A stretch of 50,980 bases of DNA from Candidatus Heimdallarchaeota archaeon. GTDB taxonomy: Archaea > Asgardarchaeota > Wukongarchaeia > Wukongarchaeales > JBHIFL01. The notes under the pieces are model-generated. The model worked only from the letters and a program-made list of their open reading frames with translations, had not been told where the DNA came from and searched no databases. Every line of letters begins with the position of its first letter. Within the stretch, counting starts at the first letter, position 1. Shown one piece after another: positions 42,500 through 46,825 of the stretch. The stretch spans positions 1 through 50,980 of the forward strand of contig JBHIFL010000022.1 in assembly GCA_046761065.1 (NCBI GenBank), given 5' to 3'. The position numbers were made by a program, and so were the translations under genes.

Positions 42500-42634
42500 G
42501 CCGCCATAGCTCAGTTGGTAGAGCGTCTGGCTGTTAACCCGACGCCGGTTGGTGGCCGGAGACATAAACCAGATGGTCACAGCTCCGCACATTTGGCGTT
42601 GCGACTACAGGTTCGAGTCCTGTTGGCGGCGCCA
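42500..42634 (+). tRNA. trnN: tRNA-Asn(GUU) with two introns (37/38 and 50/51)
   Basis: GCCGCCA/TGGCGGC acceptor plus G-CCA; anticodon GTT at 42533-42535; introns 42537-42567 and 42581-42608. Confidence 0.93.
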
Positions 42635-42676
42635 CTCTTCTTTTTTTGTTATCACTGTTATTGGTAATTGTTGGTA

Positions 42677-42761
42677 TTTTCAGAAAAAAATTTCAATGGT
42701 CTTAGTAATAACTTACAACGGCTGTCCTTTTTTCAGAAATAACTTACAATGAAAGGAGTCC
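42677..42761 (+). repeat. Left repeat array (about 3 degenerate units) of the mer island
   Basis: Core AATAACTTACAA occurs twice; 42702-42731 matches the reverse complement of 46592-46621 at 29/30. Confidence 0.8.
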
Positions 42762-43123
42762 AGATCTCACACCCTTTATATTGGGGGCGTTGCATTTAAA
42801 CCTATTTTTCTTCATTTAATCATAAAACCTATTCGATAAGACTACCAACGCTTTATTATTAGGAACATAAAAAATGAGAATGGTTGATTTTTAAGTAAGA
42901 ACAGGATTATATGGAATGTATATACTTATGGCCAAAAAGATGGTTGATTCCTGGGAAGTGGGATCAGACCCCCAAATCTTGTGTGGACTTATTATTGTCA
43001 GTGACACTTTACAGGTAATAGGAACTTGTTTCAAGGTCTAATAACGGAATTTTTGATAAATTATAGCTTTTAAAAGATTTTATGCTTGATAGAACCTCCA
43101 TTAAGATAAGGTTATAAATAATA

Positions 43124-43139
43124 ATGATAAATATATCAT
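43124..43139. promoter_or_regulatory. Putative ArsR operator
   Basis: ATGATA-aata-TATCAT palindrome abutting the arsR ATG, just downstream of TATA-like TTATAAATA. Confidence 0.55.
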
Positions 43140-43466
43140 ATGACAAAAATATCAGATATCTTGATAACCTATCAATTGTTTTTCCAAGCCCTAGCAAATT
43201 ATTCGAGGCTTGCTATCCTTAGTCTCCTAGAGAAGGGGCCTAAGACGGTCACCGAGATAAGCAAGGAACTTGGGTTTGAACAGAGCCGGGTTTCGCATAA
43301 CCTAACGTGCTTAGCATTCTGTGGGTTCATAACCAGCGAGAGGAACGGGAAGAACAAGGTGTATTCCTTGAATACTGCCACCATCCAGCCCTTGCTCGGC
43401 CTTGTTGACCAGCACATCGAGAAGTATGCTAGTAATCTTCGGGAGTGTAAGGTGCTTAAACGATGA
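43140..43466 (+). CDS. ArsR/SmtB metal-sensing regulator
   Basis: 'FQALANYSRLAIL', 'QSRVSHNLTCLAFCG', 'YSL'. Confidence 0.9.
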   Translation: MTKISDILITYQLFFQALANYSRLAILSLLEKGPKTVTEISKELGFEQSRVSHNLTCLAFCGFITSERNGKNKVYSLNTATIQPLLGLVDQHIEKYASNLRECKVLKR

Positions 43467-43695
43467 GAACACCGCTGAATAAGACTAGTAAAGAGGCCCC
43501 ATAAAAAAGAACACAGGTTTAGCCTCTTTTGGGATATGGGCACTTTTAATTCTGTGCTGTGCACTTCCACTTGTCCTGATAGCAGGAGGGGCAACGGTTT
43601 TGGTAGGTATGATATTTCAACAAACGATTATATTGATTTCCGGGGCGTTTTTTATAATATTTAGTGGCCTAACCTACTTAAGACGGAGAATATAG
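43463..43695 (+). pseudogene. MerF/MerE/MerT-like small mercury transporter, frameshifted near its 5' end
   Basis: Frame 43501-43695 reads 'GIWALLILCCALPLVLIAGG...YLRRRI*' (two TM helices with a CC pair); the ATG at 43463 overlapping the arsR stop is off by one base at the C-run 43497-43500. Confidence 0.7.
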
Positions 43696-43718
43696 GATAA
43701 AATCAGGAGGAATACGCG

Positions 43719-45122
43719 ATGAGAAGTAAGAAAGAGTTTGATGTGATCATCCTTGGGGGTGGCGCAGCCGCCTTTGGAGCCGCGATGAAGGCGGATGAAC
43801 TGGGGGCGAAAACGGCGATGATCGAGCAAGGCACGCTTGGTGGAACCTGTGTCAATGTAGGGTGCTTACCGACAAAGCATCTCCTCCATGTGGCTGAACG
43901 AGTCCATTCCACAAACCATCATCTGGTCGTCGGGTTAACGAGTAAGGCGTCCATCCAATTTCAGACCATCATGGAAGAAAAGGATAACCTGGTTACCCAG
44001 ATGAGAGAAGAAAAATACGAGCAAGTGTTGGCCAATCTACCCAACGTCACCCTCATCCAAGGCTACGCTCGGTTCGTATCTAGGAATGCAGTGGAGGTCA
44101 ATGGGGAAACATATCAGGCCGAGCGATTCATCATTGCGACCGGCTCCTCCACCTTCATTCCCCCCATTAAAGGAATAGAAGAGACAAATTACCTCACCAA
44201 TATTGAGGCGCTGAGTTTAAAGCGCAGACCCGCCTCGATGATCGTCTTGGGCGGCGGCCCGTTAGGCGTGGAGTTCGCCCAGATGTATGCAAGATTTGGG
44301 ACCCAAGTGTGCATGCTCCAAAAGGCGGCAAGATTAGTCCCTCGCGAGGAGCCAGAACTCTCTAGATTGCTGCAACATTATTTAGAAACCGAAGGGATAG
44401 AGATCTACACTTCCGTTGACGTGCAAGCCACTTATAAAGAGGATCAAGAAGTAGTTGTCACCGCAATTGTCGATGGCGAAACAAGGGTATATCGAGCAGA
44501 AGCCTTGTTGGTCGCCACCGGGCGAAGGCCAAACACCTCCGGGTATGGGCTTGAACTCACTGGAGTCGAGCTGGATACGCGGGGAGGAATCATCGTGAAC
44601 AAAGAAATGCAGGCCGCGGAACATGTGTGGGCGGCGGGGGACGTGAAGGGGGAACCCATGCTGGAGACGATCGCGGCTCGGGAAGGCTTTATCGCGGCGC
44701 ACAACGCGCTCTCCCCTTCGAAGAGACAGATGGATTATACGGTTGTCCCTCATGCCATTTTTACTGACCCCCAGCTTGCTTCCGTGGGATTAACTGATGA
44801 ACAGGCCAACCAACAAGGCACCATCTGCAGCTGCAGGACAATCTCGATGGATCTCGTCCCGAAAGCCCGGACCATCAAAGATACGCGGGGCGCAATAAAG
44901 ATGGTCCTGGATAATGAAACGCAGCGAATCGTGGGGATCCACATTTTAGCTCCCACGGCCGCCGATCTCATCCATGAAGCCACCTTCATTCTCAAGGCGA
45001 ATCTGACGATTTATGATGTGATTGATACCCTCCATGTTTTCCCCACCTTGTCCGAGGGCATCAAAATCGCGGCCCAGTCGTTTGTCCGAGATGTCCGCAA
45101 GATGGCCTGCTGCGTAGAATAA
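43719..45122 (+). CDS. merA: Mercuric reductase (no NmerA domain)
   Basis: 'GGTCVNVGCLPTK' redox centre; 'HVFPTLSE'; C-terminal 'MACCVE' Cys pair. Confidence 0.92.
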   Translation: MRSKKEFDVIILGGGAAAFGAAMKADELGAKTAMIEQGTLGGTCVNVGCLPTKHLLHVAERVHSTNHHLVVGLTSKASIQFQTIMEEKDNLVTQMREEKYEQVLANLPNVTLIQGYARFVSRNAVEVNGETYQAERFIIATGSSTFIPPIKGIEETNYLTNIEALSLKRRPASMIVLGGGPLGVEFAQMYARFGTQVCMLQKAARLVPREEPELSRLLQHYLETEGIEIYTSVDVQATYKEDQEVVVTAIVDGETRVYRAEALLVATGRRPNTSGYGLELTGVELDTRGGIIVNKEMQAAEHVWAAGDVKGEPMLETIAAREGFIAAHNALSPSKRQMDYTVVPHAIFTDPQLASVGLTDEQANQQGTICSCRTISMDLVPKARTIKDTRGAIKMVLDNETQRIVGIHILAPTAADLIHEATFILKANLTIYDVIDTLHVFPTLSEGIKIAAQSFVRDVRKMACCVE

Positions 45123-45208
45123 CTTCAGGAGGAATTTTGATTGTAGTGAGCTAGCAATGAGGTACAATTTGGTGATGAATGTGATAGAGAAAAAAATTGG
45201 TGTGGACT

Positions 45209-45735
45209 ATGAATTTAAAGCTTTTAACTGAATTTCAAATATGGGGAAACAGAAAGGTACTCAAACTCTTAGAGACCCTTACTGAGGATGAATATTATTC
45301 CAATTTAGGCGAGAATATTGGGAGTATTCACCATAAATGTGCACACATAGTCAGTGTGTACGACTTTTTTATTAAAATCTTTGAAGATGAGCCTTTTCCT
45401 CGTTTCCGGACATGATCGGCTTAAGTAAGAATGAGATTTTAAAGAAATGGGATAATGCCCACCAACGATGGCTAGAATTCCTACAAAATCAATAAGAAGG
45501 CTTAGTTGGCTTGTCTTTGGCAAACGGACAAAGAATTGATGTGGTCCATATTTACAATGATGCCCTCTTGCATACGATTCATCATCGCGCCCAAATTCTG
45601 ACGGCTCTCAGGTTGCTCGGCAAAGATAAAAAGGCGGTCCATCCAAGGGATACCAATACTGACTATCTTCTGTATCTCTTCAGTGCGCAAAGGAATCTAA
45701 TTCACCCCCCTTTAGTGAAAAAAGGTGACAATTAA
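45209..45735 (+). pseudogene. DinB family protein, frameshifted
   Basis: 'GSIHHKCAHI' and 'HTIHHRAQI' in different frames. Confidence 0.75.
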
Positions 45736-45754
45736 ATCATTTTAAGGATCAATA

Positions 45755-46223
45755 ATGCCCGAATTAAACAACAACCATGAACCAAAAGAAGAACGAACCC
45801 CCTACCCTCAATACCCTCCTCTAGATGATAAAGAGAAGGAAAATTCCTGAAACACTCATCGCCGTCTTTTGCACATACAACGAAGATGGCACGATTCATA
45901 CCGATTCGGTCTGGTTCAAATACGAGATCGTGGCAATCCTCTTTGGCATCCAAGAGGTCAGTCGGAAGATTAGAAATCTGCAGCGCAACTGCCATGTCAC
46001 CGTCTTAATCGATACTCATGACCCACCCTATAAGGGCGTCTAAATCTATAGTATCACCGAATATGACTATGATGATATGATTGGCAAACGGGTAGCCATT
46101 TTTGAGAAGTACACCTTGCGGGAAAATGCTTAAAAATATGTGACTACTTATGCCCGTCAATTTAAACCAGTGATCGTACGAATCAAGCCCGAACGGGTCT
46201 TGAAATGGGATTACACGAAATAA
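45755..46223 (+). pseudogene. Pyridoxamine 5'-phosphate oxidase-like (PPOX class) pseudogene
   Basis: 'CTYNEDGTIHTDSVWF', 'KIRNLQRN..VTVLID', 'IKPERVLKWD' with stops and frameshifts. Confidence 0.75.
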
Positions 46224-46300
46224 CTTGGCGAAATCCCACAGTACCAAAATGCTAGTGTTACGAGGAGGAGCAGCATTCCCTGCTTTGTCCCTTTTGGATA

Positions 46301-46525
46301 CTATTTGACTCCAATATCATGTTTCTTAGAACGATGGCGAGTCAAACTGCTTTTCTTTTTGGTTCGAAATTCACAACCCGATTGGTTACAGGAATGCCAC
46401 ACGACGCCCATATTATGTTTATGGGCAAGATTTTGTTTTAGATTATTATGATGTTTTGCATGATACTCACAATGGGGGCAAGGATACCATGTGATCTCAA
46501 TCTCGTGTTTATCTACTAAATGTCC
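46301..46525 (-). pseudogene. Remnant of a tandem C2H2 zinc-finger array
   Basis: 'GHLVDKHEIEITWYPCPHCEYHAKHHNNLKQNLAHKHNMGVVWHSCNQSGCEFRTKKKSSLTRHRSKKHDIGVK*YP'. Confidence 0.8.
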
Positions 46526-46555
46526 TCAAGTTTCTAATGTCATTACAAACGGTTA

Positions 46556-46745
46556 CTAACAAAAGTGCACCCGTAGTAATTTTTTTCTAACAAAAGGACA
46601 GCCATTGTAAGTTATTACTAATAAAAGGGGACCTGTTGCAAGTTATTACTAATAATGGACACGAGTTATTATAGAATTCTTCTGAAAAAAAAGGAGACTG
46701 TCTATTATACTTGTATGTTTCATTGTTATTTTTTTTCTAAGAAAA
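46556..46745 (-). repeat. Right repeat array with 31-bp period, inverted relative to the left array
   Basis: CTAA anchors at 46556, 46587, 46618 and 46649; TTG(T/C)AAGTTATTACTAA occurs twice; further degenerate units to ~46745. Confidence 0.85.
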
Positions 46746-46825
46746 CTAGTAATTGTCAAAATGACTTGGATTGAATAAAAAATCTCCATTGATAATGGTC
46801 AAGACGTTTTACATATCATTTGGGT

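Follow-up and report, generated by a model that had tools for sequence, protein, structure and literature searches.

The window analysed here, a stretch of 50,980 nucleotides, belongs to a Candidatus Heimdallarchaeota archaeon whose genome is a 4.4-Mb metagenome-assembled genome (MAG) of 234 contigs, 91% complete and with an estimated contamination of 8.2%. Within this window, two mutually inverted arrays of TTAGTAATAACTTACAA-type repeat units bracket approximately 4.1 kb (about 42661 to 46759) that hold arsR, merA, two pseudogenes, and a zinc-finger remnant (Table 1). The left array begins approximately 30 bp past the 3' end of a tRNA gene that contains an intron and lies about 4 kb from the zinc-finger fragment, and the stop codon of an Hsp20 gene is found 66 bp from the right array. 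The open stretch at 46304 to 46525 is the remnant of a eukaryote-style tandem C2H2 array, left by a many-fingered gene that has been truncated at its 5' end.

Table 1. Features of the repeat-bracketed segment and its left flank, in window positions
Feature	Position	Strand	Remarks
tRNA-Asn, intron-containing	42500..42631	+	3' end faces the left array; candidate attachment site
Left-hand repeat array	42661..42758	+	inverted with respect to the right array; read as an L-like end
Left-array units	42680-42699, 42702-42721, 42733-42752	+	
ArsR/SmtB-type metalloregulator	43140..43466	+	cargo
Mercury(II) reductase MerA	43719..45122	+	cargo; TIGR02053, 567 bits
DinB-family pseudogene	45197..45735	+	split over two frames
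PNPOx-like gene fragment	45825..46250	+	interrupted about 72 codons in; convergent with the zinc-finger remnant
TAG after ...HDIGVK	46301..46303	-	native stop of the gene, or a stop that arose from a Trp codon
Zinc-finger open stretch	46304..46525	-	74 codons; 2.5 C2H2 fingers joined by Trp linkers
Finger 2, C-x4-C-x12-H-x4-H	46319..46390	-	intact; inside the sole ATG-started ORF
Finger 1, C-x2-C-x12-N-x4-H	46415..46480	-	Asn codon at 46432-46430
In-frame TGA at the 5' break	46526..46528	-	family homology breaks off at this point, midway through a finger helix
Right-hand repeat array	46553..46759	-	about 6 to 7 units in all; read as an R-like end
Right-array strong units	46571-46590, 46602-46621, 46633-46652	-	31-bp period; degenerate units flank both sides

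Translation of the minus strand over 46190-46561 reproduced exactly the half finger, the Asn-bearing finger, the intact finger, and the repeated linkers that the first-pass annotation had described. With respect to the ligand pattern C-x2-4-C-x12-H-x3-5-H, finger 2 fits, finger 1 has an asparagine at the position of the first histidine, and only half of the first unit is present, namely, the final six residues of a finger helix (H-x4-H) at residues 2 to 7 of the translation. The three linkers of the fragment have the motif H-x-[IM]-[GE]-[VI]-x-W-x-x-C in common, and the one joining the two surviving fingers is a non-canonical linker of eight residues; a pair of fingers joined in this way offers too little for the recognition code to predict which DNA triplets they read. 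No additional finger remnant is found on either side of the stretch in any of the minus-strand frames, nor after the TAG in any frame. A six-frame translation of the 4.4-Mb genome contains just 30 instances of the strict C2H2 pattern, no two of them within the same open frame, so the tandem arrangement of the fragment is not due to chance; the fragment is moreover a unique stretch within its genome.

An ATG at 46411 is the sole canonical start of the stretch; it opens an ORF of 36 amino acids (46411-46301), and finger 1 is thus not translatable from a normal start. That this short ORF is still in use, encoding a small single-finger protein that binds DNA or RNA, is very unlikely, even though it combines an ATG with an intact finger that retains all four ligands and small single-finger proteins are known in archaea. 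Upstream of the ATG, 38 codons homologous to the family remain open without a start codon, as is characteristic of a longer gene that was cut short; none of 60 relatives has an orthologue, and the genes adjoining the ORF are pseudogenes. The fragment is best interpreted as what remains, at the 3' end, of a gene whose 5' part was lost.

Word-indexed protein searches retrieved no matches. An exhaustive HMMER search retrieved 1135 proteins at an E value of ≤0.001, with 366 at ≤1e-10; the best single stretch scored 78.8 bits, and many members of the family carry 3 to 23 matched stretches. Most members are composed of units of approximately 30 to 32 residues with the consensus C..C.YK.K....LK.H.A..HDIGV.W. 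In an alignment of 48 of these sequences, the Cys and His ligands are invariant and both linker Trp columns contain at least 90% Trp. The column that holds the asparagine of the fragment is at least 90% His, which supports the His-to-Asn decay proposed for finger 1 in the first-pass annotation. As had been suggested, a many-fingered protein was very probably encoded by the parent element.

The assignment to classical C2H2 fingers comes from the relatives and from the predicted fold. Scored alone, the fragment stays below the Pfam cut-offs (21.2 bits with PF13909, for which the cut-off is 27, and 18 bits with PF00096, for which it is 25.2), and among 130 relatives, matches with an E value of ≤0.001 were obtained for PF13909 (81 proteins), PF23612 (80), PF23223 (75), and PF00096 (68); the models matched are of the zf-H2C2_5, zf-C2H2, and ZNF462/ZN142 types. 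An AlphaFold2 model of the fragment, built on the 48-sequence alignment, has a mean pLDDT of 83 and presents the strand-strand-helix (beta-beta-alpha) arrangement twice. The top Foldseek matches to this model in the PDB are all DNA-bound C2H2 fingers (CTCF, Tramtrack, and TFIIIA) with a probability of 0.99 to 1.0, at E values no better than 5e-3 due to the small size of the model. The description of the array as eukaryote-style C2H2 is thus borne out.

The TAG that terminates the stretch had been taken to stand where a tryptophan is expected. The codon may instead be the original stop of the gene, because the relative P0060 ends with TAA at the identical position and no remnant of a nuclease-like domain, as found in part of the family, follows. 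The TniQ-type protein of genome G172 stops two residues before the position of the TAG. A read-through of the TAG as pyrrolysine or Trp was rejected, as nothing finger-like lies beyond it and P0060 ends there with TAA.

The two top-scoring proteins of the family come from the genome assembly of the beetle Exocentrus adspersus (P0001 and P0002; accession numbers KAJ8909654.1 and KAJ8910029.1); they comprise 1459 and 2395 amino acids, with 15 to 23 matched stretches. On a TARA ocean contig, P0005 adjoins a family-B DNA polymerase, and P0004 is found among helicase, RING, and NUMOD genes. On TARA scaffold L016 (10001-11200) and in P0016, P0094, and P0099, arrays with Trp linkers are followed by a C-terminal PD-(D/E)XK-like module in which Pfam finds no match, and on a giant-virus-like contig, one such nuclease-fused array has a Clp protease and a family-B DNA polymerase beside it. 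The eukaryotic and viral affinity ascribed to the array in the first-pass annotation is therefore borne out by relatives from a eukaryote and from a giant-virus-like contig. The many-fingered proteins of this group (P0005, P0016, P0094, P0099, and KAJ8909654.1), many of them with a C-terminal PD-(D/E)XK-like domain, have the same finger and linker consensus as the fragment and are 40 to 53% identical to it over 74 residues. They differ in arrangement and in context: their arrays are either N-terminal to the nuclease-like domain or very long (15 to 23 stretches) and stand in viral or eukaryotic surroundings, whereas the array of the fragment is C-terminal and stands in an archaeal mobile island.

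When 400 Asgard genomes were searched with a profile, 44 gave matches, and these revealed a second architecture. In G172:C74 and G163:C179, the fingers make up the C-terminal two-thirds of an ORF placed directly after a fused tnsAB gene (TnsA_N plus rve) and a TniB-family tnsC. On the metagenomic contig L073, which encodes P0030, tnsA and another ORF precede TniB and the zinc-finger ORF, and a group II intron follows. These three (G172, G163, and L073) are the complete relatives with a C-terminal array in the TniQ position; on the incomplete contig L017, TniB is directly followed by the zinc-finger gene (P0020). The intron of L073 (4863-5699) encodes a reverse transcriptase with RVT_1, GIIM, and HNH domains directly after tniQ(ZnF). 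In G172:C74 (locus L055, 227-880 and 7909-8781), the tnsAB-tnsC-tniQ(ZnF) element seems to lie beside or inside a DNA-methylase-like gene and carries a methylase-like paralogue with 71 to 74% nucleotide identity over approximately 440 nt, a setting that mirrors the Heimdallarchaeota element of a recent preprint (10.1101/2025.07.27.667033).

The N terminus that precedes the fingers in the TniQ-type relatives with Trp linkers is conserved over approximately 90 residues and is missed by the Pfam TniQ model (PF06527). An hhalign comparison with six canonical Asgard TniQ domains aligned this short N terminus with the N-terminal part of canonical TniQ (probability of 92.6%, E value of 4.4e-7). Fusions of a canonical TniQ with C2H2 fingers, joined by classical linkers, are also present in G029 and G095. 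The same TniQ-like N terminus is found in the orphan genes of G207, P0051, and P0069. The orphan of G207:C38 has 404 amino acids. At this locus (L051, 6148-6756 and 6765-7976), two orphan genes with a TniQ-like N terminus converge, one with a SWIM-like Cys/His motif and one finger and the other with about ten fingers, and no tns genes lie nearby. G212 and G270 hold remnants, and G254:C5 holds a stand-alone zinc-finger gene of 157 amino acids without the TniQ-like N terminus. The first-pass annotation had suggested an HMM search for intact homologues and fused domains, and such proteins exist, with a TniQ-like N terminus in one type and a nuclease-like C terminus in the other.

These two architectures allow the end of the fragment to be compared with both. 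In the virus/eukaryote type the fingers precede the nuclease-like domain, and proteins of the TniQ type have a C-terminal array and end 2 to 15 residues past the last His. The fragment ends six residues past its last His, so that it has the same C-terminal array, ending a few residues past the last His, as the TniQ type. The scores themselves do not separate the types, since the fragment scores about equally against members of either. The possibility that the remnant comes from a gene foreign to any transposon, either a zinc-finger protein with a PD-(D/E)XK-like nuclease or a host transcription factor that was broken inside the island, has in its favor that most of the best 150 family members lack a TniQ-like N terminus, that the best single match (P0003) is not of the TniQ type, that P0005 adjoins a family-B DNA polymerase and several relatives have a C-terminal nuclease-like domain, and that one Asgard genus has a conserved C2H2 host protein of 393 amino acids. 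This origin is nonetheless decidedly improbable. The nuclease type has its fingers at the N terminus, and the last finger of the fragment is succeeded by a stop, with nothing nuclease-like beyond it in any frame and no remnant of the viral-type nuclease domain in the whole genome; every full-length Trp-linker locus inspected in Asgard genomes (G207, G163, and G172) carries the TniQ-like N terminus; and the host family, which has no Trp linker, gives much lower scores. The host protein, seen for example at L031 (G044:C190, 1336-2517) as approximately 390 residues with about eight C2H2 fingers, no Trp linker, and an additional C-terminal domain, is conserved in 21 of the 25 genomes of genus g28, with a ribosomal protein S11-like gene as its neighbor, and appears to constitute a many-fingered family encoded by the host and distinct from the transposon type.

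Within the genome, the repeat arrays are confined to this locus. The 20-nt consensus TTAGWAAWAAYTTRCAAYGG, with up to three mismatches, has six matches in the 51-kb window where 0.1 is expected, three on the plus strand (42680-42752) and three on the minus strand (46571-46652), and the repeat unit is absent from the rest of the 4.4-Mb genome. When both ends are followed inward, the left one is colinear with the outermost 110 nt or so of the right one, which has approximately three to four extra inner units with an exact 31-bp period. Such an asymmetry between left and right is typical of Tn7 ends, and the units would then be putative transposase sites. The zinc-finger fragment lies 28 bp inside the denser, right array, close to the 30 bp or so noted at first, and reads inward; this orientation, inward from the dense end, is as in the tns operons.

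Beyond the source genome, no counterpart of two phased repeat units was detected in the GTDB genomes scanned (0 matches). The sole match in JGI metagenomes lies inside a bacterial glycosyltransferase-like gene and was rejected as a chance match. An autonomous parent element was likewise not found in the GTDB genomes or JGI metagenomes scanned. The flanks of the segment show no clear TGT termini or 5-bp target duplication, the best candidate duplication matching at 4 of 5 positions; decay could have erased both termini and duplication.

In related Asgard elements, three to five repeated motifs of approximately 20 nt, spaced 20 to 40 bp apart, are found just upstream of tnsA(B). They are clear in L073 and G174, kilobases away from the gene in the tniQ position, which encodes fingers in L073 and none in G174. 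A weight matrix made from the units of this locus picks the R-end repeats in three related elements with binomial P values of 0.002 to 0.03. However, column-permuted matrices perform as well in 37 of 300 trials, and this similarity was consequently not counted as evidence; the likeness of the unit to Asgard R-end repeats, for which a hand count gave 16 of 22 positions in one unit of G174, was set aside because it is not significant against the permuted matrices.

Outside the island itself, a zinc-finger gene with an adjacent array was found on the 4.3-kb metagenomic contig L075. There, P0051, an intact TniQ-like protein with Trp linkers, starts 83 bp downstream of four 29-bp units (1912-2025), and an inverted partner array of three units with a spacing of 20 to 22 bp (1698-1759) lies 155 bp further upstream; the contig holds no tnsABC. 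By hand count, the first 12 nt of the L075 unit agree with the unit here at 10 of 12 positions. The two arrays of L075 have only the second half of the unit in common, which is not the half that resembles the unit here. They may be the ends of transposons in tandem or belong to a derivative that lacks tnsABC.

The first-pass annotation had proposed that the zinc-finger protein recognized the 31-bp repeats and formed a system with them. In the form that the many-fingered protein itself bound the phased repeats of 29 to 31 bp, as a zinc-finger/repeat-array system or as autoregulatory operators, this proposal gains from the distance of 28 bp between array and fragment, from the second locus on L075 with its four 29-bp units, intact gene, and lack of tnsABC, and from the agreement of the two units over their first 12 nt. 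It is not supported by the intact relatives, whose array occupies the TniQ position and whose repeats, where clear, stand upstream of tnsA(B), and in the Tn7 family the end repeats are bound by TnsB: the motifs of L073 and G174 are kilobases from the tniQ-position gene, the upstream regions inspected at the zinc-finger operons of G172 and G163 show no clear array, and the orphan and remnant homologues G207, G212, P0069, and P0060 have no array beside them. In addition, inverted arrays at both ends of a segment with cargo fit transposon ends, and the L075 arrays share only the half of the unit that is unlike the unit here. The expected co-occurrence of repeats and zinc fingers thus holds for P0051 and fails at the other loci examined, and binding of the repeats by the fingers is considered unlikely. 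Since orphan genes occur without an array and operon repeats stand upstream of tnsA(B), the reading of the arrays as transposon ends is kept as the most likely one.

The pairing on L075 is awkward for a simple one-off deletion. An array next to a zinc-finger gene at two independent loci could reflect recurrent loss of tnsABC, a satellite lineage without tnsABC, or fingers that bind the repeats. There is a small chance that the pairing is functional and not a deletion scar, with the fingers reading the end repeats or with a satellite devoid of tnsABC being moved in trans. In the satellite version, a Tn7-like lineage may keep only the zinc-finger selector beside its R end, with the present locus as a decayed member and L075 as an intact one.

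The content of the bracketed segment looks like cargo that was acquired and is decaying. The G+C content of merA is 53%, compared with 37 to 43% in the surrounding sequence, which suggests acquisition from elsewhere, and the DinB-family and PNPOx-like genes are broken. As each of these two genes is interrupted by frame changes, the entire right half of the island appears to be in decay. Taken with the arrays, this supports a mobile-element-like island bounded by repeats. An artificial origin of the arrangement, as an assembly chimera or as contaminant sequence in the MAG, is extremely improbable: although the MAG is split over 234 contigs with 8.2% contamination and repeats can mislead assemblers, the fragment lies within a contig of at least 51 kb, between an archaeal intron-bearing tRNA gene on one side and, on the other, an Hsp20 gene with orthologues (41 to 44% identity) in genomes of the same order, its G+C content is in line with the neighborhood, and the two arrays are mutually consistent inverted copies. 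In both same-order genomes used for the empty-site comparison, the Hsp20 orthologue and the tRNA are on separate contigs, and no empty site was recovered.

The fragment probably derives from a decayed, non-autonomous Tn7-like element, in which it would be the tail of a zinc-finger TniQ that has lost its 5' part. This reading builds on direct observations (family membership, the truncation, the lost zinc ligand, the inverted arrays, and the architecture of intact relatives). The array with HDIGVxW linkers would have served for DNA binding at the C terminus of a short, TniQ-like target selector, as used by Tn7-family elements in Asgard archaea, and would be the last surviving piece of the transposition machinery in an element of approximately 4.1 kb (about 42661-46759) situated beside tRNA-Asn. 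The two repeat arrays would be the transposon ends with predicted TnsB binding sites, the denser one being the presumed R end, and a deletion between the R end and the fingers would have removed tnsA/B, tnsC, and the 5' part of tniQ. By analogy with known elements, TnsB would bind the repeats, and the fingers, when the element was intact, would have recognized the site of insertion instead of the end repeats; the chosen target would then be passed to TnsC and TnsB via the N terminus of TniQ.

The genes that define such an element are absent. PF06527 has no match anywhere in the 91%-complete genome, and tblastn searches of the whole genome gave no match to the TniQ-like N termini of the relatives and none with an E value below 1 to three Asgard TnsAB proteins; a phylum-wide TnsAB search also had no match in G000. 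No TnsC was found in the island or elsewhere in the genome: the only matches to the TniB-family model lie on contigs C19 and C2, with 23 to 25 bits, and the model matches in all 14 control genomes as well. For this reason, the locus is filed only as a probable relic and not as a Tn7-like transposon.

Elements of this design are known. Archaeal, mainly Asgard, transposons of the Tn7 family have been described by Thesier, Hsieh, Schargel, Wingo, and Peters in 2025, five of them with TniQ fused to tandem C2H2 fingers; some lie beside tRNA genes, and one transposed in E. coli (10.1101/2025.07.27.667033). In that work, genes within 50 bp of an element end were counted as candidate targets and archaeal elements targeting tRNA genes were reported, and in the Tn7 family end repeats are bound by TnsB, with TniQ domains reading the target site (10.1101/2025.07.27.667033). 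The TniQ-C2H2 selectors of the preprint and the intact relatives described above have tandem C2H2 fingers at the C terminus and occupy the tniQ position after tnsA/B and tnsC. Like the present locus, the published elements lie beside tRNA or housekeeping genes; their ends have repeated transposase sites, to which the arrays here would correspond. In contrast to them, only 2.5 fingers are left here, without a TniQ domain and without tnsA/B/C, and the fingers belong to the Trp-linker (HDIGVxW) subtype, whose Asgard representatives have the N terminus of about 90 residues that Pfam does not detect. A survey based on PF06527 would therefore miss this subtype and under-count the elements.

The Tn7 and Tn5053/Tn402 families use TnsB/TniA, TnsC/TniB, and TnsD/TniQ, and Tn5053 carries mercury resistance. 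The locus resembles Tn7 and Tn5053 in its inverted ends with multiple repeats, denser at one end, in reading inward from the dense end, in a mer cargo module, and in its position beside the 3' end of a conserved gene, a candidate attachment site. It differs from them in the absence of transposase genes, of recognizable TGT termini, and of a 5-bp duplication, in units that are approximately 31 bp apart instead of 22-bp sites, in its archaeal host, and in a mer regulator of the ArsR type. The kind of element is already known from the work of Thesier et al. (2025), and the copy here is most likely an ordinary relic of it.

As such, the locus is a data point for Asgard transposons of the Tn7 family that are aimed by eukaryote-style zinc-finger arrays. 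The occurrence of one finger subtype in Asgard elements, on a giant-virus-like contig, and in eukaryotes hints at an exchange of DNA-reading modules with the eukaryotic virosphere, and an array placed directly beside a zinc-finger gene without transposase genes, as found here and in one relative, could mark non-autonomous derivatives.
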